The position numbers and the translations under genes are program-made. This document shows, in pieces, positions 105 to 56,675 of a stretch of 64,000 nt of DNA. The notes beneath the pieces are model-generated. The model saw only the letters and a program-made list of their open reading frames with translations. It did not search any database and was not told the DNA's origin. How positions within the stretch are numbered: position 1 is the stretch's first letter; every line of letters begins with the position of its first letter. This stretch comes from Candidatus Eiseniibacteriota bacterium (lineage in GTDB: Bacteria; Eisenbacteria; RBG-16-71-46; CAZAMP01), in NCBI GenBank assembly GCA_965224245.1, contig OZ245046.1:4912484-4976483 (forward strand), written 5' to 3'.

Positions 105-413
105 GTGGGGCACCAGGTCGACGAGATCGTGCTGACCCGGCACAAGTCGCTGCCCAATGGCGAGCAGCCGGCGGAGGACAGGACGGTCGCGGCTGCCGCG
201 GCACGCGAGCAAGACGCCTTCCACTCCGGCGAGATCACGGTGGCACGCCCGGAGGATCCGACGAACCCGGTACAGACGATCCGCTTCGACGAGGGTCACG
301 TGACGTCGATCCAGCAAGAGATCAACGGCAGCCGGTTCGTGGAGACGCTCAACATCGCCGTGAAGTCACTCCAGGTCGACGACAACATCTTCGAGCCGGA
401 ACCGGCGGAGTGA
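105..413 (+). CDS. Hypothetical protein; possible small tail/injection-system component preceding the spike gene. The start may lie upstream of the window.
   Basis: ORF with GC3-biased codon usage. Its stop at 411-413 overlaps the start of the next gene at 410 (ATGA-type coupling). No recognisable motif. Confidence 0.3.
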   Translation: MGHQVDEIVLTRHKSLPNGEQPAEDRTVAAAAAREQDAFHSGEITVARPEDPTNPVQTIRFDEGHVTSIQQEINGSRFVETLNIAVKSLQVDDNIFEPEPAE

Positions 414-9164: not shown

Positions 9165-9378
9165 GGCTCCCTCCCGGTTCCGGCCGGATCTCGGACTGCG
9201 CGACGCGGCGAGGCCGTGATCGCGCTGGACGGGGCGAGGCGCTCGGGAATCGAGAAGATCGTACCACGCGGAGGGGGCCAGATCGTCCGGGCCCATGCAC
9301 AACGGCCTCGGCCGAGGCGACCGAGAAGCGCTCTCGTTCCGAGGCCGCCGATGGAGACGATTCACCGCCGAACGGCGA

Positions 9379-42060: not shown

Positions 42061-42185
42061 GGCCCGCCGATCCCGTAAACTCGACGTACCCGGACGACGT
42101 CACCGCCGCCGTGCGCCGCGGATGCCGGCGACGCTCGCCCCCGGCTCGACACCGCCAAAACGCCGACGAGGCGACGGGAGGGGTC

Positions 42186-42842
42186 ATGGCAGGACCCGAG
42201 CTTCGACTGCCCACCTGGGAGCAGTTCCTCATCAACTACGGCAGCGCCACCGCATCCTGGGGCGCGCGGCTCACGAGCGATCAGAAGAAGCTCGCGAAGG
42301 AGATCTTCGGCGACTCGATCGACCTCACCCGGGTTCGGGTCCGGACCGGAGCGCTGCCCGGCATGGGCGGCGCCGCCGCGATGGTGCTCGGCAACACGGT
42401 CATCGTGGACCCGAAGTACGCGCTGAAGGGCGGGCTCCTGGCCCACGAGCTGACCCACGTCTGGCAGTACCAGACGACCGGCTCCAAGTACCTGAGCAAC
42501 GCGACCGTCCACCGATCCTATCGCGTGAAGATCGTCCGGGGCCGGCCCATCGGCGAGTACAACGCGGAGCAGCAGGCCACGATCGTCGAGAACTACTACT
42601 ACTGGCGCTACCTCAAGACGGTGTCGTCCGACTTCCGCGCCGACAATCCCAACATCAGGGGGACGATGAAGGAGGTCGATCGCCTGATGAACGAGATCCG
42701 TGGGCGGCGACCGCAGGCCGAGAGCACGCTCCAGCTCGATCTGAACCGGGCGATGACCGGAGCCGACTCGAGCTCGCTCCCGTCTCCGGCGGATCTGAGC
42801 GACTCGCCGAACCCGGTCTATCAGCTGGAGCTTCGGTTCTAG
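42186..42842 (+). CDS. DUF4157 (HExxH zinc-metallopeptidase-like) domain protein.
   Basis: 'FGDSIDLTRVRVRTGALPGMGGAAAMVLGNTVIVDPKYALKGGLLAHELTHVWQYQ' matches the DUF4157 pattern (FG.DLSRVRVHTG...A.T.GN.I.F......GR.LLAHELTHVVQ). Start ATG at 42186 preceded by 'GGGAGGGG'. Confidence 0.75.
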   Translation: MAGPELRLPTWEQFLINYGSATASWGARLTSDQKKLAKEIFGDSIDLTRVRVRTGALPGMGGAAAMVLGNTVIVDPKYALKGGLLAHELTHVWQYQTTGSKYLSNATVHRSYRVKIVRGRPIGEYNAEQQATIVENYYYWRYLKTVSSDFRADNPNIRGTMKEVDRLMNEIRGRRPQAESTLQLDLNRAMTGADSSSLPSPADLSDSPNPVYQLELRF

Positions 42843-42904: not shown

Positions 42905-44317
42905 TCATGGGAGCACGGCTGACGCTCCTCCCGCGTTGTAGAACCGCCCCGAGATATCCTCGGCCACCTCGACCACGGCTCCGGACTCGAGATCGATCGA
43001 GAAGACATGGTCATTGCCGGAGATGGCGTAGAACGCGCGGCCCGTGTATGCGACCCCCGTACACCTTCGGGGAAGATCGGCGACGACGCTCGACGAACCG
43101 GTATCGGGATCGACGCGCAGGAGCGTCGACGCGCCGGCGATGATCGCGGCCACGTAGAGCTGGCCGTCGTGAGGCGAGAAGTCCAGATCGCCGCCGGGCG
43201 CGCCGGCGATGAATCCGATGAAACGCGTGGCGCCGGACTGGGGGTCGATCTCGAACAGACGCCCCACCGTGCTCGATCCGTCGACCTCGGCCGCGCCGAA
43301 CAGACGGCGATCGACGCTGAAGGCGAGGCTGTTCATGACGGCGCTCATCTCGCCGAGGCGGGTCATCACGGCCGTGGTCGGGTCGATCCGGTAGAGCCAA
43401 CCCTCGTCGTCACACCCGTAGAGTGCCGCGTCGGGTCCCGGCGACCATGCGATGTCGTACAGCCGCACGCCACGACCGCCGTAGCGCGCTCGCCCCAGCT
43501 CCGTGTACACGAATCCGGCAGCGGCATCGACGTATCCGACGTGGCTCGGTCGCAAGATGCTCGAGACCCAGATGAGGTCGGGTTCGGGCCACGGCAGCAC
43601 GTTCACCCGGCCGGTGCCGGAGACGCCGGCACGTACCTCGACGACCTCGAGCTCGGCCGATCCTGGCGCCGACGCTGTGATCCAGCCCTCTGCGTCGATG
43701 GTGACGACATCGTCGCCCGAGACCACGCGCCACTCGAGGGCGGATCCGGGTACCACGAACGCCTGTCCACGCGTGTCGGTCGAGGACACACTGACCGGAA
43801 AGCGATAGCCGACGGGGAGCCCCAGCGGATCGCCCTGCACCGTCAGGCTCGTGAGCGTCGAGACCAGCTCGAGTCGAGCGGTGAACAGCTCGCCCGGCGA
43901 GACGTCGAACGCGGTGGCACCCGACGCGACGGTCCCACCCTCTCCGTTGAGCAGCGTTCTCGCCACCCCCACGAGCTCATAGCGTCCCGCGGGGATGAGA
44001 TCCCGAAACCGGATCGTCTCGCTCGCCGCACCGTCGTCCGGCCGGTTGGCAACCAAGGAGTAGCGGACGTCCGGCCGGTCGGATCGGTGCATCTCGAGCG
44101 CGATACTCTCGGCATACGGCGGGATGTAGGCCATCCGTGCATCGCGAGCTCCGGACCACGTGATCGCGATCTCAACGGCGGAGCCGATCGGGGGCTCGGT
44201 GCCGACGACGTCGGGTGCCCGCTCGCACGCCGCGCTCGCAAGCAGGATCGTTGTCCACAGGGGGATCCGACCCCACCGGACGCACCCGTCGACCTTCGAG
44301 ACTTTAATCGACTTCAA
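42905..44317 (-). CDS. Lipoprotein with Ig-like and beta-propeller-like regions, unknown function.
   Basis: Lipoprotein signal 'WTTILLASAACERAPD'. A Big_2-like segment 'ALEWRVVSGDDVVTIDAEGWITASAPGSAELEVV' is followed by repeated beta-strand blades. Confidence 0.5.
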   Translation of the reverse strand: MKSIKVSKVDGCVRWGRIPLWTTILLASAACERAPDVVGTEPPIGSAVEIAITWSGARDARMAYIPPYAESIALEMHRSDRPDVRYSLVANRPDDGAASETIRFRDLIPAGRYELVGVARTLLNGEGGTVASGATAFDVSPGELFTARLELVSTLTSLTVQGDPLGLPVGYRFPVSVSSTDTRGQAFVVPGSALEWRVVSGDDVVTIDAEGWITASAPGSAELEVVEVRAGVSGTGRVNVLPWPEPDLIWVSSILRPSHVGYVDAAAGFVYTELGRARYGGRGVRLYDIAWSPGPDAALYGCDDEGWLYRIDPTTAVMTRLGEMSAVMNSLAFSVDRRLFGAAEVDGSSTVGRLFEIDPQSGATRFIGFIAGAPGGDLDFSPHDGQLYVAAIIAGASTLLRVDPDTGSSSVVADLPRRCTGVAYTGRAFYAISGNDHVFSIDLESGAVVEVAEDISGRFYNAGGASAVLP

Positions 44318-46163
44318 CGTTTCCTCCTCCGGAGACCCCGTCGTTCACGACGAGCTCGGGTAGCGAGTCGATGTCGGTGACGTCCATCGGTGCGTGACTC
44401 CACGCCGGCACGAAGCCCGGGGACGAGCACACCAGCTCCACGTCCGATATCGCCGGGAACGAGACCGTGTCGTCCCCCGGCTCGCGTCGGATCAGGAGCG
44501 CGAACGCCGTCGCCAGGAACGAGAGTGACTCGCCGTCGACCGCGGGGTCGACCGTGGACGGATTGCGCCGCCCGTGGTCGTAGAGCAACGCGGCGACGGC
44601 ATTCTCGAGGTCGTCGAACGTCCGGGGCAGAGGAGTGCCATCGCCGAGGCCGAGGAGCATCCTGGCATCCTCCACGCTCTGCTGGTCGAACGCCGGCGAG
44701 TCCTCGCTCGTGGGCGATCTGGGCGTGATACGTCGCGGGACGACGCCTGCGCGGCGAAGCTGATCACACTCCGCGATGTCGGCGTTCGTGACCGCACCCA
44801 CCTGCGTCGCGTCCGGCTGGCGTCCGTCGACCTCCATGCCATCGGCCAGCTCAACCAGCGATCGGTCGGTCTCGTCGGAGAAGACGCCCTCCTCCTCGCA
44901 GCGACCGATGGCGTCGCGGAGCGCGATCAGCTCGTTCACGTAGACGGCGCCGAAGACGGTTGCTCCCACGACCGACGGTGCCATCGCGACGGTACCGACG
45001 GCAGCGGCACCGGCGCCGAACCCGGTCCTGGCGAGGTCGAGGGCGCAGGCGGCACTGGGTGCCCAGCTCTCCACGCCGCGATAGAGGTCGTCGATGCCGC
45101 GGTCGATGATGAAGCCCAGCGTCAGGTCCTCGAGCACTTTGACGTCGAAGAACTTCGGCGCCCAGCGCGGATCGCTCAGGAGGGTGGCCAGCCCGTCCAG
45201 CGAGGAGGGAATGTCGCGCATCCACTCCTCGGGGACGTATCCAAAGACCTCGTCCGCGATGGTGCCCAGAAACGACGCGTCCAGCCGATGCGCGAAGTCG
45301 AGGACGTCGTCCCAGAACGACGACTCCTCCGGCGGACGGGATCGTGCCGTGGTTGAGAGCACGACTCCGAGCGGAAGCTCGGCCACGATTCGATCGACCC
45401 GAGATAGATACGACGCGACGTCGTCACCCGTGAGCTCGGAGTTGATCGGGAGGAGCGACGACGGACTTGGAGATCGACCCGTTCCCGCGGCCACACGGCG
45501 AACCCACGTGTTGAACACGTCCGAGTACACCACGTACGCGGCCACCTTCCCGATCTCGTCCTCCGAGCGCGCGATGGAGGCCGCCATCTCCCGGGCACCC
45601 GCGACCTGGTTGTAGCGGTAGAGGTCTCCCAGGACGCGCATCGCGTGAAACGTGCGCTCGAACATGGCGGCTGTCCACTGGGGGTTGTTCAGCGCGGCGC
45701 CGATCTCCTCCTCGTCCACCGCGAACTCGCTTCCCACGAACGAGAGGTCGTCCAGTCGGAGCGCGGTATCCAGGAGCCGGCCGTACATCTCGGCGAACCC
45801 CTGGAGCGCGACCGTCACCGTCTGGCCGAACGTGCGTAGCTCGTCGCCACCGCTCGTTCGGTGCTCGGCGAGCGCTGCGATCTCTGCAACGCCTGCGATC
45901 TCGGCGAGCTCGGGGATATGCGGCGAGGAGCCCGTCCACGCCTCGGTCACGAGCTGAACGGCGTTGCTGTACTGATCGATCCGAGCAGTGAGCGCCCGCT
46001 CGATGACCGGTCGATCGCGACCCGGCGTGCCGCTCCCGAGACTCTCGGGCTGGATCGGTGTGTTCTCGTGCGAGCAGCTCGCGAGGAGCAGCAGCGCCGG
46101 ACCGACGAGGTGCGCATGGTGTCGGCTCCCAGCGGCGCTCGCAGTGTGTCTCCGTCTCATCAT
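44304..46163 (-). CDS. Lipoprotein, largely alpha-helical, unknown function.
   Basis: Start at tandem ATG ATG (46163). Signal peptide 'MMRRRHTASAAGSRHHAHLVGPALLLLASCSHEN' with lipobox LLASC. The listed ORF's 141-aa N-terminal extension is Arg/Pro-rich, probably non-coding. Confidence 0.5.
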   Translation of the reverse strand: MMRRRHTASAAGSRHHAHLVGPALLLLASCSHENTPIQPESLGSGTPGRDRPVIERALTARIDQYSNAVQLVTEAWTGSSPHIPELAEIAGVAEIAALAEHRTSGGDELRTFGQTVTVALQGFAEMYGRLLDTALRLDDLSFVGSEFAVDEEEIGAALNNPQWTAAMFERTFHAMRVLGDLYRYNQVAGAREMAASIARSEDEIGKVAAYVVYSDVFNTWVRRVAAGTGRSPSPSSLLPINSELTGDDVASYLSRVDRIVAELPLGVVLSTTARSRPPEESSFWDDVLDFAHRLDASFLGTIADEVFGYVPEEWMRDIPSSLDGLATLLSDPRWAPKFFDVKVLEDLTLGFIIDRGIDDLYRGVESWAPSAACALDLARTGFGAGAAAVGTVAMAPSVVGATVFGAVYVNELIALRDAIGRCEEEGVFSDETDRSLVELADGMEVDGRQPDATQVGAVTNADIAECDQLRRAGVVPRRITPRSPTSEDSPAFDQQSVEDARMLLGLGDGTPLPRTFDDLENAVAALLYDHGRRNPSTVDPAVDGESLSFLATAFALLIRREPGDDTVSFPAISDVELVCSSPGFVPAWSHAPMDVTDIDSLPELVVNDGVSGGGNVEVD

Positions 46164-46281
46164 GTCTCCGTTTCCCGACGACCGGGCTTCGACGCCGAAC
46201 CCCGGACGCGACGACCGCGTCGCCCGGACCGTGTCCGGCCCGGGCGAGACGACCGCGTGCACGTGCGCGCGGCGGATTCCC

Positions 46282-48414
46282 TCATCGAATGACCAGGCGC
46301 GACGTCCGCGAGACCGAGTCGACGTCGACCCGCACGAAGTAAACGCCGGGACTCGCCAGGACACCGCCGCTGGTGCGTCCGTCCCATCGGATGTCGTGCC
46401 ATCCAGCGATGAGCACCCGGTCGGCCACGAGGGCGACGAGTCGGCCCTGCACGTCGTACACGGCGATGCGGACCGTGGCGGTCTCGGCGAGCGCCAGGCG
46501 AACCTGCGTTCCCGCGCGAGACGGATTGGGTCGCGGCGAATCCACGCTGGTGGCGTCGGGAGCCGGCGCGTGCTCGTCGGCGGCAACGATGCCGCCGGTC
46601 ATGGCCACGCTTCCGCAGCCGGTCAGGAGCAGGCAATCGAAGGCGCCGCCCTCGGCCGGTGGGGTGAATCGAACGGTCACCGTCAAGAAGTCGTCCGGAT
46701 CGATGATGTAGTCGCCGCCGCCCTCGACGATCTCGAACACGCTCGTGTCACAGGCCGCATCCAGCTCCACCCGTCCCGCGATCGGTGCGCCGCCGACGTT
46801 GTCGATGAAGATCGACTGCTCGTCGAACTCGCCCGGAAGGGCATCGAACTCCATCGTCGTGTCCGAGAGAACGCACTGCCCCGGCTGGACGCCCTCGCCG
46901 TACAGGAACACATCCTCGCAGCCGGTCTCGACGAAACAGCTGTAGAAGTCCTCGTCCACGGCGGTGAACCGGAGCGTGACCGTACGTGACTGTCCCGAGC
47001 TGAGTGCGTAGGCCCCCCCGCCCGAGACGATCTCGAAGCCCGCGTCGCACAGGCCGGGGTCGAGCTGGACGACGCCGGAGAGGATCCCTTCTGCGCCGTC
47101 GTTGCGGACGACGAACGACGACTCGGCGAGCTCGCCGATCACCACCGCGCCGAAGTCGATCTCGTCCGGTGTCGTCGAGCACGCCGGGTTCACGCCTGCG
47201 CCGTACACGTAGGGGCCGAGGCAATCCTCGTTTCCGAGCTCGATGTCGCAGTCGAAGAAGTCGGCGACCGTGGGGGCGAAGCGCACGGTCACGTTCCGGG
47301 TCTGACCCCGGGAGAGGCTGTAGGAGCCCGCCCCGCCCACGATGGTGAACTGACCGGTGTCGCAGCTACCGGTGGAGACGACGCCGGCCAGGACTCCGCC
47401 GCCGTCGTTTCGGACCGAGAACGACCACTCGGCGCTGGTGCCGGTGACGACGTTGCCGAAGTCGTGACTGCTGTCCCCGGTAACCGTGCACACCGGACCG
47501 ATGCCGTGGCCGTCGAGCTGGACGGCGAGGTCACGGATGCCGAGCGTCACGTCGCAGTAGTAGTAGTCGTCGTCGGGCGGGGCGAAGCGGACGACCACAT
47601 CCCGATACTGGCCGGGGCTCAACGTGTATGGACCCCCACCCGCCACGATGGAGAAGCCCGTGCATCCGGCGGCGAGGGCCACATTGCCGGAGATGGGATC
47701 GTCGCCGACCGACTGAATCCGGAACGACCGATCGACGGGCTCGTTCACGTAGACGCCGCCGTAGTGGATTGCGCTCTGATCCGGTACCGTGCGCGCTGTG
47801 CGTACGCGAAGCCGAACGGCGTTGATCCGCATCGTCGTGGTGTTGTCGTGTCGCTGGACGCCGATGTTCAGGTCGAAGAAGGGGTCGTCCGGATCGGCGT
47901 TCCAGTCCCACATCGACGTGAGATCGCTGAACGCCGCGGGGATGCGCCACCGGCAGATCGAGTTGTTCGTGAAGCTGTTCCCCGGATTCTGGACACCGAT
48001 GACGGTCTCGCCCCAGCGGATGCGGTTGTTGAAGCTGCCGCCGTCGGCCCCCGAGTAGCGGCCGTGCACGTTGAAGTGCACCCCGGTGATGACCTCGCCG
48101 TCCGCCAGCGAGAAATACGACCCGTCCAGGTGCCGGAAGTCCCCACAGAAGAGACGGCGCGTGCCGGACGCCACGGTGTTGTAGGCGGTCTCACCGTTCG
48201 AGCAAGGACAGTCCTGGCAACCCGGGTCGAAGCCGTACGCACCCGCGTGGTTCTGCCACTGATCGAAGTTGTCGTCGTTGTCGAACGAGTAGAGCTCGTA
48301 GATGGCACCGGCAGTGCCGGGCCACGTGAGAATGAGCAGCGCGAGCCAGAGAACCGGGACGAAAGGCGACAGATGCCGGAGACGCGACATGTGGCGGAAA
48401 CCGAGTCGTGACAT
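46282..48414 (-). CDS. Secreted protein with four ~90-aa ASH/'choice-of-anchor D'-like repeat domains and a FlgD-Ig/T9SS-type C-terminal domain.
   Basis: Signal peptide 'FVPVLWLALLILTWPGTAGA'. Repeats of the form 'FGxVVxGxxAExSFxVRNDGxGxLxGVV......FxIVxGGGxYxLSxGQxRxVTVRF'. C-terminus 'RPNPSRAGTQVRLALAETATVRIAVYDVQGRLVALV...IRWDGRTSGGVLASPGVYFVRV'. Confidence 0.65.
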   Translation of the reverse strand: MSRLGFRHMSRLRHLSPFVPVLWLALLILTWPGTAGAIYELYSFDNDDNFDQWQNHAGAYGFDPGCQDCPCSNGETAYNTVASGTRRLFCGDFRHLDGSYFSLADGEVITGVHFNVHGRYSGADGGSFNNRIRWGETVIGVQNPGNSFTNNSICRWRIPAAFSDLTSMWDWNADPDDPFFDLNIGVQRHDNTTTMRINAVRLRVRTARTVPDQSAIHYGGVYVNEPVDRSFRIQSVGDDPISGNVALAAGCTGFSIVAGGGPYTLSPGQYRDVVVRFAPPDDDYYYCDVTLGIRDLAVQLDGHGIGPVCTVTGDSSHDFGNVVTGTSAEWSFSVRNDGGGVLAGVVSTGSCDTGQFTIVGGAGSYSLSRGQTRNVTVRFAPTVADFFDCDIELGNEDCLGPYVYGAGVNPACSTTPDEIDFGAVVIGELAESSFVVRNDGAEGILSGVVQLDPGLCDAGFEIVSGGGAYALSSGQSRTVTLRFTAVDEDFYSCFVETGCEDVFLYGEGVQPGQCVLSDTTMEFDALPGEFDEQSIFIDNVGGAPIAGRVELDAACDTSVFEIVEGGGDYIIDPDDFLTVTVRFTPPAEGGAFDCLLLTGCGSVAMTGGIVAADEHAPAPDATSVDSPRPNPSRAGTQVRLALAETATVRIAVYDVQGRLVALVADRVLIAGWHDIRWDGRTSGGVLASPGVYFVRVDVDSVSRTSRLVIR

Positions 48415-48545: not shown

Positions 48546-48599
48546 AATAAAAAGGGGAGCCCGACGGTGGATTCTCGGTGAGCGCTAGTCGGGGTCTCC
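48546..48599 (-). terminator. Rho-independent terminator candidate at the 3' end of the CHAT gene.
   Basis: On the minus strand the stem is 'GACCCCGAC'...'GTCGGGCTC' with one mismatch, followed by 'CCCTTTTTATT'. Confidence 0.45.
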
Positions 48600-51563
48600 G
48601 AGGTAGATCAGGCCGGCCCAGTGGTACGGATGGGGGTACGTGCTTGTTACGCTGCGTTTTGCGTCGGCGAGTGCGCTCAGCTTTCCCCCGAGGCCGGCGG
48701 CCGCGAGTCGTTCGTAGAAAGCATCCATGACCACGGCGGTCGCGGCGTCGTCGACGGGCCAGAGCGTGGCCACGACAGACGGCGCCCCGGCGTAGAAGAA
48801 GCCCCAGGCGACGGAGACCTGACTGTCCCCGACCTCGACGCCACGCCTGGTGTCGCACGCGGAGAGCACCACGAGCTCGGTGTTGGCGAGGCGGCCGCCC
48901 CAGTCGCGAATGAGATCCTCGAGGGTCAGAAACCCGTCGTCGATCGCCGTGGGCACCTCGGGCGGCGTGAAGGCAAGGCAAGCGTCGTACGGCTGTGCGA
49001 TGGAGCCGGCCAGACCGTGCATCGCCAGATGCAGAATGCGTGCGTTCGGCGCCATCGCGCGTGTGTTGGAGATCGTGGCGTCCTCTGCCAGAAGCAGCGA
49101 CGTCGACCGATCGTGGCGTCGGAATGCACGGTCGATCTCGGTCGCCTCCCACCCCGACGCGGCGAGGTCCGGCATCCAGCCGCCGTCGCGGATGAACGCC
49201 TCCAGCGGGCTGCGTTCATCATCGGTGGTCCCCCCACGTGAGGCCGCAAACAACGGCACGACCGAGCGCGCGTACCGGGGATCGGCGGCCATCAACAGAT
49301 CGAGATCGGCTTCTTCAACCCGAGCCCGGCGCCGGCGCTGCAGCTCGTCGTAGACCGCGATGGACTCCACGTACGCGACCGGCGGGCCGACGTCGACGAA
49401 CCGGTCGCGCGTTCCCGGTACCCGAAGCACCTCCAGTGGTACGCCCGAGATCCTGCGATCGAGCGAGCACAGGACGCGCTTCGCGCGTGCGATCGTCGCC
49501 CACACATCCGGCGGAAAGTACGCTGACGCGAGATAGGACTGCAGGGAGTCCGAGGGCTCAATCGCGATCCCGGGCGGCTGCTCGATGAACTGGCGGACCT
49601 GTCGTACCGCCGGTCCCAGCTCGTGCCACGGCACCGTCGACTGCCAGTGGATCGGCTCCGGATCCGTGACGTCGACGAGGAACACCGAGAACCAGTAGGA
49701 GCGCACCGCATAGCTCACATACACGTCGCCGGGTTGGAGTGTGGCGAGGATCTCGTCCCCGGTGAGCGGCGTCTCGGTCGGCCACGCGGCGCGATCGCGC
49801 GAGGCGAGCACGACCTCGAGGCTGTCACGCTCACCGCGGGCGGCCGACAAGCGCTGCTCGAGTGCGCGGAGCTCCGGCGAGCGCACGTCGGATCCCGATC
49901 GACGCCGGAGCTCGAGGTAGCGACGCTCGAGCGCCACCTCGGCTTCTCGTGCACGGCCGACGGCGGTGGCGAGATCGTGCTGCTGCGAGCCGGGCTCGGC
50001 ACGCGTTCGGCGATCGCGGCGCAAGAGGTCCAAGAGTCCGAGCCCGCGGCCGGACTCCGTGATCGCGAGCCCCCGCACGGGATCTCCTTCCTTGGTCTCC
50101 AGCGCTCCCAGCTTCTCGGTGATGGCCTCGATCTCGGCATGGCGTCTGTAGGTCGCCCGCTGGCGCTCGTCGGCATGGTCGGCCGGCATGTTCCGGAAGG
50201 CGAACTCGAGAGCCTCCTCGAGGAGGGGGCGCAGCTCGCCCAGGGTGTCCGGCTCCTCGAGAGCGCAGGCGAGTCGAAACAGCGCCGCGGATCGATTCCA
50301 CCCGGAGCGGCGTCCACCGATCGCGTCGTCCCAGGCCAGCCATCGCCGGATCCAGTAGACCATGCTCTTTTTGTCGAGACGAGACGAGGCACGAGCGGCG
50401 AGGTCGTGATAGAGAAGTCCCCGCAGATTGGAGTCGAGTCGCGTGTGGGACTCGAATTCGCGAACCAGGTCCTCTACCTGTTCGTCCGGCTCGAGAACCG
50501 CGCACGAACGAATGGAGTCGAGCACGATGTGGCTGGAGGGACCGAGACACTCGACGCCGTCGCTCACAACCTCGCCGAACAACGTGACCGCCGCCTCCGG
50601 TGAGCCGCTGTTCGCGAGGTGCTGCGCCAGGCGATACTTCGCGGCGATCGTGGCATAGTGACGGGAGCCGAACGCGGAGTCCGCCCTCGCGACCGCGCGC
50701 TCGTAGAGCCCGAGCGCGTTCGCGCCGTCGCCCTTCATCGAGAGCACGTACGCCAGCCCGATCGTGCCCACGACAGCCGTCGTCACCGATCCGACCGTGT
50801 CGGCCGCCGCGATGCCACGGCGCATGGCGATCTCGGCGGCGTCGAGGGCATTGCTGTAGACGTAGAATCGACTTCGTTCGAGCTGCACGAAGGCGCGGAA
50901 GCCCTCCGGGTCGGGCCGGTCCGCGACGAACGACCCCTCGAGGCGATCCAGGAGGACGCGAGCCGAGTCGAGCTTCGATGTCTCGAGCAATCGCGATACA
51001 TCCGCCATGCGAGCCTCGATCGCGTCGGGGTGTCCATCCCCCAGCGAGGCCACGAGCGCGTCGATCGCTCTCCGGGCGAGCGGATACGCCGCCGCGGGCT
51101 CCTCGGACAGCGACAGCGCCGAGTAGGCGGCGAGGTACGCACGGCCGACCTCCGCGTCGACATCTCCCAGCCACCGCGCCTTCCACTCCGCGACCCTGAG
51201 GCTGCGGCGGTAGGCCTCCCCGGGATCGGCCCCGACGAGGTCCGGATCCCAGGTGATCGGCTCGGTCTCCAGCTGCGAGAGCTCGGTGCGAGCTTCCTCG
51301 GGCAGATCGCAGATCCGCGTCAGTCGGTCGACCAGCGCGCTCGCCTCACGGACGCGCCAGTCGGCCGCCCGCGATGCGCGTAGCGAGTCCAGCTCGGCGT
51401 GCGCGAGGGCCAGAGCGCTCTGGTAACGACCCGCCACGCGCTCCGACGCGATCGTGATCGGCGGGTCTCGGTCCGGCGCGCACGCGAGGAGCACCCCGAC
51501 GGCCAGCCCGCTACCGAGGTACGACCACCTCGAAGAGATGCCGGACCGGATTCGAAGGTGCAT
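48585..51563 (-). CDS. TPR-repeat protein with a C-terminal CHAT (caspase-like) peptidase domain; secreted or lipoprotein.
   Basis: Signal 'YLGSGLAVGVLLACAPD'. N-terminal two-thirds are TPR-like helical repeats. CHAT block 'RILHLAMHG...TELVVLSACDTRRG...GAPSVVATLWPVDDAATAVVMDAFYERL'. Confidence 0.8.
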   Translation of the reverse strand: MHLRIRSGISSRWSYLGSGLAVGVLLACAPDRDPPITIASERVAGRYQSALALAHAELDSLRASRAADWRVREASALVDRLTRICDLPEEARTELSQLETEPITWDPDLVGADPGEAYRRSLRVAEWKARWLGDVDAEVGRAYLAAYSALSLSEEPAAAYPLARRAIDALVASLGDGHPDAIEARMADVSRLLETSKLDSARVLLDRLEGSFVADRPDPEGFRAFVQLERSRFYVYSNALDAAEIAMRRGIAAADTVGSVTTAVVGTIGLAYVLSMKGDGANALGLYERAVARADSAFGSRHYATIAAKYRLAQHLANSGSPEAAVTLFGEVVSDGVECLGPSSHIVLDSIRSCAVLEPDEQVEDLVREFESHTRLDSNLRGLLYHDLAARASSRLDKKSMVYWIRRWLAWDDAIGGRRSGWNRSAALFRLACALEEPDTLGELRPLLEEALEFAFRNMPADHADERQRATYRRHAEIEAITEKLGALETKEGDPVRGLAITESGRGLGLLDLLRRDRRTRAEPGSQQHDLATAVGRAREAEVALERRYLELRRRSGSDVRSPELRALEQRLSAARGERDSLEVVLASRDRAAWPTETPLTGDEILATLQPGDVYVSYAVRSYWFSVFLVDVTDPEPIHWQSTVPWHELGPAVRQVRQFIEQPPGIAIEPSDSLQSYLASAYFPPDVWATIARAKRVLCSLDRRISGVPLEVLRVPGTRDRFVDVGPPVAYVESIAVYDELQRRRRARVEEADLDLLMAADPRYARSVVPLFAASRGGTTDDERSPLEAFIRDGGWMPDLAASGWEATEIDRAFRRHDRSTSLLLAEDATISNTRAMAPNARILHLAMHGLAGSIAQPYDACLAFTPPEVPTAIDDGFLTLEDLIRDWGGRLANTELVVLSACDTRRGVEVGDSQVSVAWGFFYAGAPSVVATLWPVDDAATAVVMDAFYERLAAAGLGGKLSALADAKRSVTSTYPHPYHWAGLIYLGDPD

Positions 51564-52290
51564 CGAGTGGGTCTCCGTTCCACAGAAGGACGGTGTACGG
51601 TCCCGGGATGAACGTGCTGTCGCTGGAGAACGTCACGTCGACCGATCGCGTCGAGCTGCGGCGAAGCACCGCGATCGTGGCGCCGTCGGGAGATGACAGG
51701 GCGATGCACATGGGCGCGTCCGCCACCAGCGGCGGAATGGTCGGTCGGACGGTCAGCTCGAGCTGCCGGGCGGACGGCTCGATCTCGACTCGCGGCGCAG
51801 TACCGCGTGTGCCCGTGAGATCGACGTGTGGGATCAGCTTCGGCGTCGGCCGCAGGAGCGGCACGATGAGCAGCGTGGCCGCGAGCGCCGTGGCGGCACC
51901 GGCCCAGGCGCCGAGCACCCAGCGAAACCGAGAATCTCGAGATCGGTCTGGCCGAGCCGGGTGGCCGGCGGCTCGCGTGTCGTTCGCGGTCCCCAATCGC
52001 GCCTCGGCCCGACACGTGTCACATCGTGCGTAGTGGGCCCGCAGGAGCTGTTGCTCGGACTCGGAGAGCGCTGCGATCGAGTCGGGCCAGCCGACGACGT
52101 ACCGCACCGGAATGTGACCCGGCGACTCCCCGTCGAGCTCCGTCCCCACCATCGCGTCGTACACGAGCCGGTACTCGGGCTGCTCGAGCAGCGCGCGGAA
52201 TCGGACGGCGTCTTCGTGCTCCAGGGTGCCGACCTCGAACGCGAGGACGTGCTCTCGGAACCACGCGAGCGTCTCGGTGCCGTCGCTCAT
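51511..52290 (-). CDS. Membrane-anchored zinc-binding (ZAS-type) anti-sigma factor.
   Basis: HxxxCxxC motif 'LLRAHYARCDTCRAE'. Single TM segment 'WVLGAWAGAATALAATLLIVPLL'. Its start overlaps the sigma-factor stop (ATGA). Confidence 0.7.
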   Translation of the reverse strand: MSDGTETLAWFREHVLAFEVGTLEHEDAVRFRALLEQPEYRLVYDAMVGTELDGESPGHIPVRYVVGWPDSIAALSESEQQLLRAHYARCDTCRAEARLGTANDTRAAGHPARPDRSRDSRFRWVLGAWAGAATALAATLLIVPLLRPTPKLIPHVDLTGTRGTAPRVEIEPSARQLELTVRPTIPPLVADAPMCIALSSPDGATIAVLRRSSTRSVDVTFSSDSTFIPGPYTVLLWNGDPLDAPSNPVRHLFEVVVPR

Positions 52291-52820
52291 AGGAATCTCC
52301 GGAACCTCTCGAGGGTCGGCAGCCGGCCCTCGTCAATGGCTCGCTTCAGGCGACCCACGCAACGCATCCATCTCGCCCGGACGGCCCCCGGCTTCTCGTG
52401 CCCACTCCGCGCGACGGCCTCCCACGACTCGGACGAGAAGTAGGCGCGCGCGAGTGCCGCGCACGGCGGATGCTCCTCTTCGAAGAGCTCCACGACGAGC
52501 ACGCGTATCAGCGAGACGTCCTCGGGTGACATCGCATCGATGCTCTCCGTCGCCGCCGGATCGGGAGCGCCCGCCGTCGCATGCGGGACCTCGATCGCCG
52601 AGCGCCGATAGTGACGTCTGAGCCACGTGTCCAGCGCGCGCCTGACCACGACACGCGCGAGCGCGTCGAGGTTCTGGACCTTCTGAGACCGGGCGACACG
52701 CCAGAGACGCACCATGCCCTCCTGGGCGACCTCGGCCCGATCCGCGGCCTGCCGTCGGGGCATGAGGTCGTCGACCGCCCGCTGGCATGCGTCCCGAATG
52801 TCGCGCAGGTCCACGTCCAC
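52287..52820 (-). CDS. ECF-family RNA polymerase sigma factor (sigma-70 regions 2 and 4).
   Basis: Region-2-like 'EVAQEGMVRLWRVARS...LARVVVRRALDTWLRR'. Region-4-like 'SWEAVARSGHEKPGAVRARWMRCVGRLKRAI'. 177 aa. Confidence 0.75.
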   Translation of the reverse strand: MDVDLRDIRDACQRAVDDLMPRRQAADRAEVAQEGMVRLWRVARSQKVQNLDALARVVVRRALDTWLRRHYRRSAIEVPHATAGAPDPAATESIDAMSPEDVSLIRVLVVELFEEEHPPCAALARAYFSSESWEAVARSGHEKPGAVRARWMRCVGRLKRAIDEGRLPTLERFRRFL

Positions 52821-52937
52821 GTTTGTGATCTCGGAGTGTCATGGCCATCGTTCCCGGGACTACACGCGTGGCGGTCACGCGCGCGCCGCTCGGTCGGGGA
52901 ACGATAGCCAATCGACAGGGAGACTCCCAACTCTTCC

Positions 52938-54953
52938 TCAGTGGCCATACGGATCCTCGGCGTGGTAGGGGTCCGCTGCATCGAGCTGCTCGACCGCGTC
53001 GGCGTCGCCGAGCCCACCTATTCCATCCATCTCCTGGAGACAGTCGAGGGCCATGGCCAGCACGTTGCACCCCGAGCACGACAGCGTCTCCAGAACGGAT
53101 GCGGCACCGTCCTCGGCGCCGGGTGGCACGGGCAGCACCGACGACCCCGACGCCATGAGCCCCATGAGCTCTTGCATGTACCCCATCGCATCTTCGACCG
53201 ACCTGGCGAGGTAGTCGCATACGATGTCTCGGGCCTCGCCGCACGGACGGCACTCGGGATCGCGATCCTCCTCGAACGCCTCGAGGTAGTAGCCCCACGG
53301 ACACTCGTCACAGGGATCGACGACCGGGACACAGCCGAGCTCTGGATCCCAGTGTCCGCCGCAAAGCTCGACGCAGCTCCCATCGGCATCGCGGGCCATC
53401 CCCGGGCCGCAGTCGGGCTCGCAGCGACACGTCACGAAGTTCGGCCGTTCCCCAGGAGGGCATGTCTTCGCACAGCGATCGGTGCACTCCCCGGTGAGCG
53501 GGTTGAGTGCGCGTCCCGGGCACGGACCCGTGGCCACCGGCTCCTCCTCGCCGGACGTCGGGGTCTCGACGTCATCGGGAGGTGTGTTCTCCACGAGGTC
53601 GCTTCCACCCGGCCCGCCACCGGTCGGACCGCCGGCAACGGGGACACACTCGCCACGTCCGTGATCCGCAACGGTGCCCTCTGGACACTTGCAGGTGTCC
53701 TGGACGACCTCACTTCCGGCGAAGCAGTCACATGTCCGGGACCATTCGTCGAACGTCGCGTCGCCATCGCAGATGCACGTCTCGAGACCCGGATCGTACG
53801 ATGCCGTGGCGGCTCCGCAGTTGCACTCCAAGGCCTTACGGTCGTGGACCAGTGCCTCGTTCTCGCACTGACACGTACCGGCGACCGTCCGAACGGCGCC
53901 GGGAGGACAATCACAGCGCGCCTCCACGTCGTTCCAGATCATGCCGCGTTGCTGACAGCGATTGAAGAAGCCACAGACGACGCCTTTCAGGCGTTGCTTC
54001 GCATCGAGTCCGGTGAACAGCTCGTACACATCCGCCCATCCGAAGAGGGGGACACAGATGACGTCGCTTCCGGATAGCCTGAAGGTGCCGGCCAGGTCGC
54101 GAATGGACTCGAGCCGTTCGAGTCCGGCCTCGCCGACGTGGCACAGACCGCTGAGCATGAGCCTGGCCGCGGCAAGTGCGCGAAGAGCGCCGCCCGACAG
54201 ATCCTCGTCCTCCACCGCGAGATCGATCAGCAGCTGCATGCGCTTGCAGGCGGCGTCGAGCGCCATCTTCATCTTGTCGGTTCCCGCGCCACTGAACCCG
54301 ACGATGTCGCAGGCCCCTTCCATCGTCGTCCACAACAGCTCCAGGTCGGAAAGGCAGGGACCGGCGTCGGCCCAGTCGTCGGCGCGGGAGCGAAAGGTCG
54401 GCTCGTCGCGAAGTGGCGAGGTCTGGGTAACGGCATCGAACGCCGCGGTCGGACCACCGTAGTCGACACGCTCGGTCAGGCCGCGGGGGACGACGACGCT
54501 CTCGCGCACGATCGAGCCCGCCAGAGCGTCCACCGTGAACGATGCGTCGATCGGCGGATCCGTGCTCCAGAGACGGAGATCGATCGACGCCGCTTCCTCG
54601 CTCGCGGACCGGAAGACGATCTCGTCTCGCGACGGTAGCGTCCACTCCACCGCGTCCTGATCGAACTCGACGCCGAAGGTGAGGTAGCCGTCGGGGCTCA
54701 CCAGCGTGTATCCGGTCAGGTGGTCGATGTCCCCGCGGAGCCACAGGACCGAGCCGTCGGTGAGCGCGAGCGCAGCCACGACGTCCGGCGGACCGGAACG
54801 CGGATCCGCGAGCCCGATGAGCGTCGTGCCCGTCGGCGGCAGCAGCTGGTCGAGCAGAACGTCCGGGGTCGAGCCCGCGCTCGCCCCCGAGGGGTGCCCG
54901 ACAGCAACCAGGAGTGCCATCAGTCCGCCGAGGTGTGTGGTTCGCCGCCACAT
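52938..54953 (-). CDS. Secreted cysteine-rich protein with EGF/laminin-like Cys repeats.
   Basis: Signal peptide 'MWRRTTHLGGLMALLVAVGHPSGASA' (start at 54953; the listed ORF extends to 54998). C-terminal half 'CDCPPGAVRTVAGTCQCENE...CNCGAATASYDPGLETCICDGDATFDEWSRTCDCFAG...CKCPEGT...CTDRCAKTCPPGERPNFVTCRCEPDCGPG'. Confidence 0.55.
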   Translation of the reverse strand: MWRRTTHLGGLMALLVAVGHPSGASAGSTPDVLLDQLLPPTGTTLIGLADPRSGPPDVVAALALTDGSVLWLRGDIDHLTGYTLVSPDGYLTFGVEFDQDAVEWTLPSRDEIVFRSASEEAASIDLRLWSTDPPIDASFTVDALAGSIVRESVVVPRGLTERVDYGGPTAAFDAVTQTSPLRDEPTFRSRADDWADAGPCLSDLELLWTTMEGACDIVGFSGAGTDKMKMALDAACKRMQLLIDLAVEDEDLSGGALRALAAARLMLSGLCHVGEAGLERLESIRDLAGTFRLSGSDVICVPLFGWADVYELFTGLDAKQRLKGVVCGFFNRCQQRGMIWNDVEARCDCPPGAVRTVAGTCQCENEALVHDRKALECNCGAATASYDPGLETCICDGDATFDEWSRTCDCFAGSEVVQDTCKCPEGTVADHGRGECVPVAGGPTGGGPGGSDLVENTPPDDVETPTSGEEEPVATGPCPGRALNPLTGECTDRCAKTCPPGERPNFVTCRCEPDCGPGMARDADGSCVELCGGHWDPELGCVPVVDPCDECPWGYYLEAFEEDRDPECRPCGEARDIVCDYLARSVEDAMGYMQELMGLMASGSSVLPVPPGAEDGAASVLETLSCSGCNVLAMALDCLQEMDGIGGLGDADAVEQLDAADPYHAEDPYGH

Positions 54954-55014
54954 GGGATCCTCCCGGAGTGAGGCGGAGCGAAGCGCCGGCGGCGGCACCT
55001 CGCCCCGCCGACGG

Positions 55015-55596
55015 TCATGGGATGTCGAATGTGATGCCGCCCAGGACCGACGTGCCGCCGAGCCCCGCGGTCTGGTGGCGTATCTCGAGAAACCCGCTGA
55101 CGCCCTCCGACACGGGGGCCTCGAGACCGGCCAGGAGATTCGCGCCGGTCTCGGTACCCTCCAGCCGCTTCGCGCCCGGCACCCCGGCCACGTCCGCGCC
55201 CAGCGAGGTCGTCACGGCACCGATGCCGCCGCCCACGTAGATGTCGGTGGTCCCATCGCGGGGAATGAAGTACCGCGCGTCGACATTCAGAGCGACCTCG
55301 CTGAAGTCGAACTCGACGCCCTCCAGCTCGATCCCGTACAGGCTCCTCGTCGTCTGCTTCCAGTAGCTGATGCTCGGGTATATCGCCAGGTTCGGCACCA
55401 GCAAGTCGCCCATGTCCGCGTGCACGCCGAACCCCAACACGCTGTCGATACCGTCCTCCGACGGACTCGTGTACATCACACGACCTCCGATCCGATGGAG
55501 CCCGATCGGGATTGGCTCCTCTTTCTGGGCGAATGCATCCTCGGCGAGCAGTGTCGACGTGAGTGCGGTCAGAGCGATCGTCAACATCTTTCTCAT
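55015..55596 (-). CDS. Outer-membrane beta-barrel protein (OmpA-N/Opa-like).
   Basis: Signal peptide 'MRKMLTIALTALTSTLLAEDAFA'. Alternating beta-strands. C-terminal 'VLGGITFDIP'. Confidence 0.6.
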   Translation of the reverse strand: MRKMLTIALTALTSTLLAEDAFAQKEEPIPIGLHRIGGRVMYTSPSEDGIDSVLGFGVHADMGDLLVPNLAIYPSISYWKQTTRSLYGIELEGVEFDFSEVALNVDARYFIPRDGTTDIYVGGGIGAVTTSLGADVAGVPGAKRLEGTETGANLLAGLEAPVSEGVSGFLEIRHQTAGLGGTSVLGGITFDIP

Positions 55597-55625
55597 CGGT
55601 TCGATCTCCTCTCGTGTCGTTCGAG

Positions 55626-56675
55626 CTAGCTTCCGGACGGGATGACGGTCATGCCTTCTGCCACGGGACTCGAGACGTCGATCACACGCAGGAACGCGAT
55701 CTTCTCCTCGACGTCCACGACCTCGAGCGTGCCGATTGCATGGAGGTCCACGTAGAGCAGCTCACCGGTGTCGGGATCGGAGATCGTCTCGCTCTCACCG
55801 ACGGTGAAGTGCTGACCGACCGAGACCCCTTCACGCAGTCCACGATTGATGATCACGCGCGTCGGCCTGTCGGCGGAGACGATCGTGCCTTCCCACTGGA
55901 CGGCGTCGAGCTGCGCCTCGAGCGTTCGCACTGCATCTGCCAGGCAATCCAGCAGCGCGCTGCCGAGGTTGTCGTCGTCGAGACCTTCGTACCGGCCACC
56001 GCCGATGAGCGGAAGATTCCGTACGCTCACCCGGTTCTGCTTCGCGACGCCGGTGACGTTCTCCGAGGCCGTGACGACTCCGGTCGTCGCGTCGATCATG
56101 TGGATCGTCATCGTGATTCGCGAGGTACGTGACTTGAAGTCGAAGCGCGAGGCTGTGCCCGGGATGGAGATCCCCCCCAACGTGCTGCCTCCGGCGTCGA
56201 TCGTGATCGTGGTGATGTGGGCACGCACCAGGAGCTGCGCCGGCGTGAGTCGACCGACCTCGGCTTGCTTCTTGCCACCGGCGACTCGACCGGAGACGCC
56301 GAAGTCCTGCTCGACCAAGGCGTCCCGCCGCGCGTCGATCCCGCCGATCGTGACAAATCGATCCGAAGCGTGTAGCTGACCGGTGAGGACCGCGGCCACC
56401 GCCGCGCTCAGATCGCCGTAGCGGGAGTGATCCCAGTAGTGCTCCCAACCGGTGGCGTGATTCCGGACCTCACTCACCATGACCGAATACCGGAGACCGC
56501 CTCCGGTGTCGTCTCGAACCGAGCCGCCGTCGGTCTCCGACGACATGGTTCCATCACCCGCCGAGACGCCTGTCTTCGCGCGGATCCGATCACCGCGACC
56601 GGCATCCGCGCCGTCCGGGGCCACGAGTGCCAGACCGACGAGTGTGCCGACGACGGCGAACGCCCTGTTCCACAT
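55626..56675 (-). CDS. CsgG-family (curli-type secretion channel / LpoB-like) protein.
   Basis: 'RYSVMVSEVRNHATGWEHYWDHSRYGDLSAAVAAVLTGQLHASDRFVTIGGIDARRDALVEQDFGVSG' matches the CsgG-family N-terminal pattern (R.AVL.F.N.....W......G..L...L...L..SGRF.V.ER..L..I..EQ..). Confidence 0.55.
   Translation of the reverse strand: MWNRAFAVVGTLVGLALVAPDGADAGRGDRIRAKTGVSAGDGTMSSETDGGSVRDDTGGGLRYSVMVSEVRNHATGWEHYWDHSRYGDLSAAVAAVLTGQLHASDRFVTIGGIDARRDALVEQDFGVSGRVAGGKKQAEVGRLTPAQLLVRAHITTITIDAGGSTLGGISIPGTASRFDFKSRTSRITMTIHMIDATTGVVTASENVTGVAKQNRVSVRNLPLIGGGRYEGLDDDNLGSALLDCLADAVRTLEAQLDAVQWEGTIVSADRPTRVIINRGLREGVSVGQHFTVGESETISDPDTGELLYVDLHAIGTLEVVDVEEKIAFLRVIDVSSPVAEGMTVIPSGS

Follow-up and report, generated by a model that had tools for sequence, protein, structure and literature searches.

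Can a caspase-like peptidase that works outside the cytoplasmic membrane decide when a sigma factor of the extracytoplasmic function (ECF) type is set free? The question is raised by a locus in a stretch of 64,000 nucleotides (nt) from Candidatus Eiseniibacteriota bacterium (GenBank assembly GCA_965224245.1, contig OZ245046.1, positions 4,912,484 to 4,976,483 of the forward strand), which was analysed at its full length and is called the window here. In this locus the genes of an ECF-type sigma factor, a membrane anti-sigma factor and an exported protein with tetratricopeptide repeats (TPR) and a CHAT peptidase domain overlap one another, and the gene of a cysteine-rich protein lies upstream of them. 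Our analysis suggests, with a probability of roughly 0.55, that the three overlapping genes specify an envelope switch in which the CHAT protein is the regulatory partner of the anti-sigma factor and acts in trans. This reading is favoured because the genes are coupled, their linkage recurs in other genomes, the compartments of the proteins match, the catalytic dyad is intact, the fold agrees, and two published systems serve as precedents. Membership of the cysteine-rich protein in the sigma/anti-sigma/CHAT module is not supported, and its gene is treated as a neighbour. The features of the locus, identified from open reading frames (ORFs), hydropathy, hidden Markov models (HMMs) and AlphaFold2 (AF2) models, are as follows.

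52287..52820, minus: divergent ECF-type sigma factor, 177 amino acids (aa), with sigma2 and sigma4 regions (ORF, HMMs)
52287..52290, minus: ATGA overlap of the sigma stop and the anti-sigma start, read from the DNA and indicative of translational coupling
51511..52290, minus: predicted single-pass anti-sigma factor, 259 aa, with a cytoplasmic N-domain, a transmembrane helix and an extracytoplasmic beta-sandwich (ORF, hydropathy, AF2)
52144..52284, minus: anti-sigma residues 3-49, a three-helix bundle like a class I anti-sigma domain, without zinc ligands (AF2)
52012..52035, minus: H86-x3-C90-x2-C93 motif of the anti-sigma factor, read from the DNA
51853..51921, minus: transmembrane helix, anti-sigma residues 124-146 (hydropathy)
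51514..51798, minus: extracytoplasmic beta-sandwich, anti-sigma residues ~165-259, a candidate docking or cleavage target (AF2)
51511..51563, minus: 53-nt overlap of the anti-sigma 3′ end with the CHAT 5′ end (ORF coordinates)
48585..51563, minus: predicted exported TPR-CHAT peptidase (caspase-like, of the separase/craspase/DdvA type), 992 aa (Pfam, AF2, Foldseek)
51480..51563, minus: signal peptide with a lipobox-like LLAC, CHAT-protein residues 1-28 (hydropathy)
49791..51452, minus: all-helical scaffold and TPR superhelix, CHAT-protein residues ~38-591 (AF2, ~27 helices; Pfam)
48594..49532, minus: CHAT peptidase domain, residues 678-990 (Pfam envelope), with the His849 codon at 49017-49019 and the Cys903 codon at 48855-48857
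52938..54953 (or from a GTG start at 54998), minus: cysteine-rich secreted orphan protein, 671 aa (ORF, ATG start)

The sigma gene ends in '...ttc cta tga' and the anti-sigma gene begins with 'atg agc gac', the two sharing the ATGA; further downstream, the anti-sigma and CHAT genes overlap in different frames. Plausible ribosome-binding sites of the GGAG type are located within the preceding gene of the series. Both overlaps had been described in a first-pass annotation made from the letters of the window, and both are found at the positions given above. The GC content at third codon positions of the four ORFs (0.80-0.84) is of the coding type, and the public genome annotation holds the same four proteins with identical lengths and sequences (177, 259, 992 and 671 aa). 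The sigma, anti-sigma and CHAT genes (52820 to 48585) probably constitute a three-gene operon. The first-pass annotation had spoken of four tightly packed genes; the four ORFs and their strands are right and three of the genes overlap, but 117 nt lie between the cysteine-rich gene and the sigma gene, which do not overlap. The four genes are moreover part of a longer run, in which about 11 genes all point the same way (60004 to 42905), and co-directionality by itself therefore says little. The run comprises an M19 dipeptidase, an unassigned gene, a CsgG-like gene, an outer-membrane beta-barrel gene, the four-gene set, a choice-of-anchor-D protein with a type IX secretion system (T9SS) tail, and two further genes; the T9SS-tail, outer-membrane and CsgG-like neighbours are envelope proteins. 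A search against Rfam gave no match.

The CHAT protein carries the clearest assignment. Its C-terminal part matches PF12770 (CHAT), scoring 140 bits where the cut-off is 24 (E=1.1e-40), and TPR_12 (E=2.4e-6), TPR_MalT and TPR_10 are matched over residues 225-332, which bears out the first-pass description of an exported TPR protein ending in a caspase-like domain. His845, His849 and Cys903 are invariant in alignment A1, as are His849 and Cys903 in alignment A2. The motifs 'HLAMHG' (with His849) and 'LSAC' (with Cys903) are kept in 26/26 CHAT proteins linked to a sigma gene, the one from the window being counted. With its His/Cys dyad intact, the enzyme is predicted to be catalytically competent. 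The AF2 model, built with 40 homologues (mean predicted local distance difference test score, pLDDT, 83.3; predicted template modelling score 0.79; residues 1-34 of low confidence), shows a helical/TPR superhelix followed by a caspase-like alpha/beta domain. The best Foldseek match in the PDB is Csx29 (8eey_B, E=1e-12), together with DdvA (8rw5 and 8rot, E=2e-11, 15-16% identical in ~1030 columns), further craspases and separase. At the level of sequence, phmmer with the CHAT protein against PDB sequences returned nothing relevant, and the A1 profile against the PDB was swamped by TPR proteins. The closest non-self relative shares 38% identity over residues 452-957 (best of 1.84 billion representatives), and the TPR-CHAT family as a whole comprises 63,731 representative clusters at E<=1e-3.

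The N-terminus of the CHAT protein, MHLRIRSGISSRWSYLGSGLAVGVLLAC, resembles a signal peptide or a lipobox, with a basic n-region, a hydrophobic core of 13 residues (mean hydropathy 2.13 from residue 16) and Cys28. The ATG at 51563, used also by the public annotation, is the sole start that keeps this segment; the only later in-frame starts are GTG codons at residues 24 and 43, and both would remove it. Relatives of the protein have N-terminal signal peptides too. On these signals the CHAT protein is predicted to reside outside the cytoplasmic membrane.

The sigma factor is less easily placed. TIGR02937 aligns with positions 25-164 of 165 of the model at E=3.4e-6 and 26.8 bits (curated cut-off 42.9), and Sigma70_r2 gives 20.6 bits (cut-off 24). 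No Pfam match to region 4 was obtained, and the matches to NCBIfam subfamilies are weak and all far under their cut-offs. A custom ECF HMM, built iteratively from the sigma genes of the fetched loci described below, spans both sigma2 and sigma4 and scores 35.5 bits (E=5e-13, for one target). The length of 177 aa is typical for an ECF sigma factor. Taken together, the protein looks like a real but atypical, divergent ECF sigma factor and not like a failed match. It is excluded from the 'WvLsqe..' sigma family, which is linked to CHAT genes in Acidobacteriota, by a score of 1.3 bits. A word-indexed protein search for homologues of the sigma factor returned the query alone, and phmmer with the sigma and anti-sigma factors against PDB sequences gave nothing relevant.

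As is expected of a class I anti-sigma factor, the third protein begins with a helical bundle and is encoded directly 3′ of an ECF sigma gene to which it is ATGA-coupled. The bundle helices cover residues 3-20, 25-35 and 38-49 with pLDDT 80-93; the AF2 model, made from the single sequence, has a mean pLDDT of 58 and is confident for residues 1-49 only. By eye, the bundle pattern VLAFEVGTLEHEDAVRFRALLEQPEY parallels motif 1 ('RYLLGxL...E....E.rL..D') of the anti-sigma factors linked to CHAT genes elsewhere. The transmembrane helix is the sole 19-residue segment of the protein with a mean Kyte-Doolittle value above 1.6 (maximum 1.98). Beyond it, beta strands are modelled at residues 167-256 with pLDDT 52-78, and Foldseek relates this C-domain to generic Ig-like or macroglobulin-like domains. 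The first-pass annotation had noted the HxxxCxxC motif and a single membrane helix, and both are present. Its label of a zinc-containing anti-sigma (ZAS) protein holds as far as the motif is real; the motif lies outside the N-terminal bundle, in a second anti-sigma-like repeat or helical hairpin (residues 77-107, low confidence), and zf-HC2 gives no Pfam match at E<=0.01, where two CHAT-linked anti-sigma factors from other genomes reach 3e-4 (locus L080) and 4e-5 (locus L007). No other Pfam family and no NCBIfam family matches the protein. His59, 27 residues upstream of His86, may provide a fourth ligand.

In layout, the anti-sigma factor of the window agrees with the CHAT-linked ones: two N-terminal motifs come first, a transmembrane helix follows (residues ~115-155), and a beta domain of ~110 aa makes up the C-terminus. 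The HMM of their motif 2 is matched by the HxxxCxxC stretch of the window's protein (P=1.7e-5). The cysteines have mostly been lost in relatives with this layout.

Does the arrangement recur? The linkage was examined at the level of the CHAT family, because no orthologous locus exists. One genome per GTDB species was scanned with an alignment that joins the CHAT protein of the window to the 25 best of its relatives, and the best 80 loci were fetched, in 78 of which the CHAT ORF could be delimited. In 30 of these 78, an ECF sigma gene is found no more than 2 kb from the CHAT gene. Near the CHAT gene there are 1.09 ECF genes per 10 kb, as against 0.13 per 10 kb in the distal flanks of these loci, an 8.6-fold difference (Poisson P ~3e-18). 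A second scan, of metagenome contigs, found an ECF sigma gene at such a distance in 16/77 loci. Judged by record title, sigma-linked loci occur in at least four phyla: Acidobacteriota (Pyrinomonadaceae, Blastocatellia, Terriglobia and Thermoanaerobaculia), Pseudomonadota (Halioxenophilus and Rhizobacter), Bacteroidota and Chthonomonadales; the lineages in the counts are not independent, with many Pyrinomonadaceae among them. The core of sigma factor, anti-sigma factor and TPR-CHAT protein is therefore not a random juxtaposition and represents a unit of a recurrent type. Conservation of the neighbourhood, which the first-pass annotation had proposed as a check, finds support at the level of the CHAT family.

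The order and topology found in the window, sigma gene, membrane anti-sigma gene and exported CHAT gene, are also those of L036 (Halioxenophilus), L071 (Acidobacteriota) and L080 (Thermoanaerobaculia). The last of these has a sigma gene, an ATGA junction, a zf-HC2 anti-sigma factor with a transmembrane helix and a CHAT protein of 993 aa with a signal peptide, confirmed by Pfam. A convergent arrangement is seen in L007, L018, L024, L084 and L098. Three of these (L007 11795-13560, L084 7788-9553 and L098 ~7772-9444) have CHAT proteins that count as closer relatives of the one in the window, and there a different, long sigma factor of 312-349 aa with an N-terminal extension and a classical zf-HC2 membrane anti-sigma factor are encoded convergently to the CHAT gene. 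The linkage to CHAT has therefore been combined with several unrelated sigma/anti-sigma families.

A cytoplasmic version was also encountered, in L054 (6353-12887), L058 (4382-10227) and L078 (6205-11800). There, an ECF sigma gene is followed by the genes of a soluble partner of ~200 aa, a TPR-CHAT protein without signal peptide and a conserved downstream protein. The soluble partner has HxxxCxxC in L054 and L058 and none in L078. The downstream proteins share 42-46% identity with each other; Pfam assigns those of L054 and L058 to Peptidase_S8 (subtilase), and that of L078 is homologous. The compartments match across the loci: membrane anti-sigma factors are paired with signal-bearing CHAT proteins in 17/17 loci and soluble ones with signal-less CHAT proteins in 3/3, with one ambiguous case (Fisher P=0.003, the lineages not being independent). 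In Pyrinomonadaceae and Blastocatellia, a gene for a cysteine-rich protein lies directly upstream of an exported CHAT, sigma and anti-sigma module (L037 5945-7561, L043 6580-8283, L018 5832-7784 and L024 6311-8566). The upstream gene of L037 encodes a clostripain-like Peptidase_C11 (Pfam, E=4e-39) and that of L043 has the same N-terminal motif, hinting at a pair or cascade of cysteine proteases.

The first-pass annotation was aware of no characterised system with this architecture. Close analogues do exist, namely DdvS/DdvA and Craspase, and a CHAT context has been noted for the group ECF54. DdvA of Myxococcus xanthus combines a zinc anti-sigma domain, a transmembrane helix and a periplasmic TPR-CHAT part in one protein and is paired with the ECF sigma factor DdvS (PMC6061681; PMC11506125; PDB 8ROT, 8RW5, 8RLZ). 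Removal of TPR-CHAT exposes DdvA to RseP, and autoproteolysis by CHAT in trans within a DdvA dimer has been proposed (PMC11506125). The likeness to the window is considerable: an ECF sigma factor, a single-pass anti-sigma factor with a motif of the HxxxCxxC type on the cytoplasmic side, and a scaffold/TPR/CHAT part of ~900 aa outside the membrane (as predicted here) with a conserved His/Cys dyad. DdvA also ranks in the top three when the CHAT model of the window is matched to solved structures, and the proposed logic, with CHAT as sensor and site-1 protease ahead of RseP, would be the same. Unlike DdvA, the window has an anti-sigma factor and a TPR-CHAT protein in separate overlapping genes, the latter with its own signal peptide or lipobox and the former with its own beta-sandwich ectodomain. 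Sequence similarity to DdvA is not detectable by phmmer against the PDB, and the zinc motif is in the second repeat and not in the first three-helix bundle. DdvS/DdvA controls an adjacent anti-phage defence island, which is true of only a subset of DdvA-like pairs (PMC11506125); among ten genes flanking the window's locus, no genes of cyclic oligonucleotide-based antiphage signalling systems (CBASS), of clustered regularly interspaced short palindromic repeats (CRISPR) or of other defence systems were found by PADLOC, which gave only a weak BovA-type match on the CHAT domain itself. The authors of the DdvA study found the fused form only in Myxococcota and one Comamonas (PMC11506125). The definition of the DdvA family calls for a single polypeptide, which places the window system outside it. 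At best, by analogy, it may work like DdvS/DdvA.

In the type III-E Craspase, the TPR-CHAT protein Csx29 cleaves Csx30, a separate anti-sigma-like protein to which the ECF-like CASP-sigma binds and by which it is inhibited (PMC10028731). Here the likeness consists in a TPR-CHAT peptidase and a separate sigma-inhibiting polypeptide, with cleavage relieving the inhibition in the Craspase, and the model from the window finds its best structural match in Csx29. The Craspase is nevertheless cytoplasmic, RNA-guided, bound to Cas7-11 and partnered by Csx30 and Csx31, whereas the enzyme of the window is predicted to be exported and its anti-sigma factor is a membrane protein unrelated to Csx30. The window system is not a craspase, because no cas genes were found: no cas or csx family appeared in a Pfam scan of 29 window ORFs (the large ORF 11758..17616 not among them) or in the PADLOC screen of the ten flanking genes.

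Regulated intramembrane proteolysis of ECF anti-sigma factors is known from RseA with DegS and RseP, from RsiW with PrsW, and from RsiV and RsiP. ZAS proteins such as RsrA and ChrR have HxxxCxxC at residues ~30-45, in the first bundle. The anti-sigma factor of the window has the motif together with an upstream His at a compatible spacing (H59-x26-H86), and zinc binding is putative; unlike in those proteins, the motif starts at residue 86, in the second repeat, and zf-HC2 is not matched. With the proteolytic systems the window shares translationally coupled genes and a single-pass anti-sigma factor, whose extracytoplasmic part is, in those systems, removed by a site-1 protease before the site-2 cleavage (PMC11506125). 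The difference lies in the putative site-1 enzyme. Here it would be a cysteine peptidase of the caspase type that carries a TPR sensor and shares the operon, where the known ones are a PDZ serine protease, a PrsW-type protease and signal peptidase. For ECF54, the passage on this group in PMC8999054 (citing Huang 2015 and Casas-Pastor 2021) describes genes for CHAT, subtilase and carboxypeptidase proteins beside an ECF sigma gene without an anti-sigma gene, and proposes proteolytic control. Judged by that passage, an ECF sigma factor is linked to a CHAT protease in both cases, and the CHAT neighbour is the only resemblance: the window has a membrane anti-sigma factor, a CHAT protein predicted to be exported, and no subtilase. 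It is the cytoplasmic modules of L054, L058 and L078 that resemble the ECF54 context as described there.

From these comparisons a mechanism can be proposed for the three-gene switch. The ECF-type sigma factor would be held at the membrane by the cytoplasmic N-domain of the single-pass anti-sigma factor. The co-translated TPR-CHAT protein, once exported, would act in the periplasm on, or together with, the small extracytoplasmic domain of the anti-sigma factor. Binding of a protein or peptide signal by the TPR superhelix would activate the His849/Cys903 dyad, and the CHAT domain would then clip the anti-sigma factor outside the membrane as the site-1 cut. An RseP-type site-2 protease and cytoplasmic proteases would complete the degradation, and the released sigma factor would transcribe its regulon, probably including its own operon. 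On the cytoplasmic side, the HxxxCxxC motif may provide a second input that responds to zinc or redox state. Co-transcription, the contact between the proteins and the nature of the substrate, signal and regulon are all what we infer from the arrangement of the genes and the analogues. That the CHAT enzyme may process the anti-sigma factor, as the first-pass annotation had suggested, is a reasonable idea with precedents, and the fusion of the two parts in DdvA, when set against the separate genes here, provides a gene-fusion ('Rosetta stone') argument for their interaction.

Several observations weigh against this mechanism. The sigma factor remains below the curated thresholds of both Sigma70_r2 and TIGR02937. 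Neither it nor the anti-sigma factor has pairwise similarity to its counterparts in other CHAT loci, and phmmer with both against all ORFs of the genome CHAT loci returned the queries alone. This particular operon has no orthologous locus, and its products and the cysteine-rich protein are each a singleton cluster at 90% identity among ~15 billion sequences. The C-domains of the window's anti-sigma factor and the CHAT-linked ones are collinear, with common '..PGxY.v.L' and '.F.V' motifs, a similarity that is suggestive and not significant (hhalign P=0.01-0.03). A scan for sigma-70 promoters and terminators and a search for GGAAC-N15-18-CGT yielded nothing usable, and no ECF promoter is claimed. 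Gene order varies, and the commonest order, exported CHAT gene, sigma gene and single-pass anti-sigma gene, is commoner than that of the window. The Planctomycetota loci L003-L006 and L008, which hold several of the closest CHAT relatives, are without a sigma gene within ~6-10 kb on either side (the fetched flanks). Linkage to a sigma factor is thus frequent and not obligatory, and TPR-CHAT proteins have other roles, because several closest relatives have no sigma gene nearby. Matching compartments and a position in the operon would be equally expected were the CHAT protein a mere output of the regulon. Finally, autoproteolysis of DdvA is itself a proposal, and mutants of its dyad show no phenotype in unstimulated cells (PMC11506125). 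Beyond these points, the contexts of two distant CHAT matches (L001 and L002) contained no sigma gene.

The main rival explanation takes up that thought. The sigma/anti-sigma pair would sense another cue, for instance stress on thiols or zinc by way of HxxxCxxC, or damage to the envelope by way of some unrelated site-1 protease, and would merely drive the synthesis of an exported protease whose substrates are other proteins, of the envelope or secreted. In both cases the position in the operon and the matching compartments would be alike. Target genes of ECF operons are often found downstream of the sigma and anti-sigma genes. Regulators and targets are indistinguishable from context (Casas-Pastor et al., PMC7826278). 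The HxxxCxxC motif is indeed present in the anti-sigma factor, many TPR-CHAT relatives have no sigma gene nearby, and other peptidase genes adjoin CHAT genes (Peptidase_C11 in L037, subtilase in L054 and L058), which suggests protease cascades with substrates of their own. However, TPR-CHAT is physically joined to the anti-sigma factor in DdvA (PMC11506125), and in the Craspase it is the sigma inhibitor that serves the TPR-CHAT enzyme as substrate (PMC10028731). An overlap of 53 nt implies that synthesis is coupled and roughly stoichiometric, and the linkage persists through changes of gene order and of sigma/anti-sigma family, which is more typical of partners than of one regulon. A CHAT protein that is only an output is therefore a serious contender which we still consider unlikely.

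Alternatively, the unit could have four genes, as the first-pass annotation had it, with the cysteine-rich secreted protein as ligand, sensor or substrate of the module. Its gene is immediately upstream on the same strand, with no predicted terminator in the 117-nt gap, and export is predicted for its product, as it is for the CHAT protein and the C-domain of the anti-sigma factor. The protein has 38 Cys, six CxC pairs spaced by 13-16 residues and a signal-like N-terminal segment, so the export and the repeats of the earlier description stand. The label 'EGF/laminin-like' is rejected, since no family is matched in Pfam or NCBIfam (E<=0.01) or in PADLOC and neither signature is found. Among 5.8 billion proteins its only homologue is itself, and none occurs in the ~155 fetched CHAT loci, which speaks against the role of ligand or sensor. 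Loci with the architecture of the window have unrelated upstream genes, which resemble those of electron transfer flavoprotein subunits in L036 and lie on the opposite strand in L071. From its ATG, the cysteine-rich gene is only 61 nt from the upstream outer-membrane and CsgG-like genes, which are equally possible partners, and all belong to the 11-gene run. On balance a four-gene unit is improbable.

Those upstream genes, at 55015..56675 on the minus strand, lie directly upstream of the cysteine-rich gene, with gaps of 29 and 61 nt. One encodes a lipoprotein like CsgG (PF03783, E=9e-12) that also has a FlgT_C-like domain, and the other a small beta-barrel protein of the outer membrane. The two are a putative pair for secretion or assembly, and the cysteine-rich protein might be part of that system instead of the sigma operon.

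Mere chance, that is, an ordinary ECF sigma/anti-sigma pair beside one of the TPR-CHAT genes of the genome, is very improbable. In its favour are the great size of the TPR-CHAT family, the many ECF sigma factors that large genomes hold and the lack of an orthologue of the locus, but the genes overlap, the compartments match, and adjacency is enriched about 9-fold in 78 loci across several phyla and gene orders. Hardly credible is an artefact of assembly or frameshift, in which one DdvA-like fused gene was split by a sequencing error: the ORFs do overlap by 53 nt in different frames and a fused form does exist in Myxococcota (PMC11506125), but each protein is complete in itself, the anti-sigma factor with a C-terminal beta-sandwich of its own (AF2) and the CHAT protein with a signal peptide of its own. 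In L036, L071, L080 and more than 20 other loci the genes are likewise separate, and no ORF fusing an anti-sigma domain, a transmembrane helix and CHAT occurs among those of the 207 collected CHAT ORFs that are at least 700 aa long.

Other parts of the window deserve a brief description. On the minus strand at 7137..9449, two ORFs in the same frame are split by a single in-frame TGA at 7746-7748. The first has LVIVD repeats and an Ig-like domain; the second has a thioredoxin or AhpC-TSA-like tail. The TGA sits on the redox motif, FFASW-[TGA]-PVC, as WCxxC with the first Cys replaced, and an 8-bp hairpin ~11 nt downstream has an energy ordinary for its GC content (z=0.08). The product is a candidate selenocysteine (UxxC) protein. 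On the plus strand, 26911..31707 encodes a class II (B12-dependent) ribonucleotide reductase of 1598 aa with an intein (Pfam Intein_splicing, residues 518-782). The 'tRNA-Cys' called by ARAGORN at 28452..28531 lies inside this gene and is almost certainly a false positive. Downstream of the CHAT gene, the listed minus-strand ORF 44304..46586 overlaps the 3′ end of the gene 46282..48414 by 305 nt; its real start is probably at an internal lipoprotein signal, MMRRRH...LLLASC, near residue 150 of the listed ORF, and no family match was obtained for the protein. Genes related to contractile injection or secretion are scattered on the plus strand at 410..1879, 42111..42842 and 60300..63170, the products of this set being proteins with a VgrG/phage-baseplate OB domain, with an eCIS_core domain, and with DUF6345 plus a FlgD-Ig tail. 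Sorting domains of the FlgD_ig or Por_Secre_tail type form the ends of at least six window proteins, which suggests a T9SS in the host. Judged by its many C-terminal T9SS/FlgD-Ig domains and its LVIVD repeats, the host is probably a member of the FCB group (Gemmatimonadota, Krumholzibacteriota or similar), and the T9SS-type domains make a myxobacterium improbable.

We know of no site-1 protease for most ECF anti-sigma factors. In the literature searched, no description of split operons of a sigma factor, a membrane anti-sigma factor and an exported TPR-CHAT protein was found; the split arrangement appears to be new, while the principle is already known. The window and ~45 related loci suggest that the partnership is much more common in the form of separate adjacent genes, in several phyla. 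More tentatively, and with less than even confidence, it can be proposed that these unfused operons are a widespread class of envelope signalling in which a periplasmic caspase-like peptidase is the dedicated site-1 protease in trans as well as the sensor, that DdvA is a rare fused derivative of a commoner split ancestor, and that ECF control of the caspase type reaches beyond phage defence. The autoproteolysis model of DdvA would be easier to test in split systems, because enzyme and substrate are separate proteins there. Caspase-like control of transcription would be extended past the CRISPR and CBASS contexts to general envelope signalling, and three otherwise orphan genes of this genome would gain a testable role.

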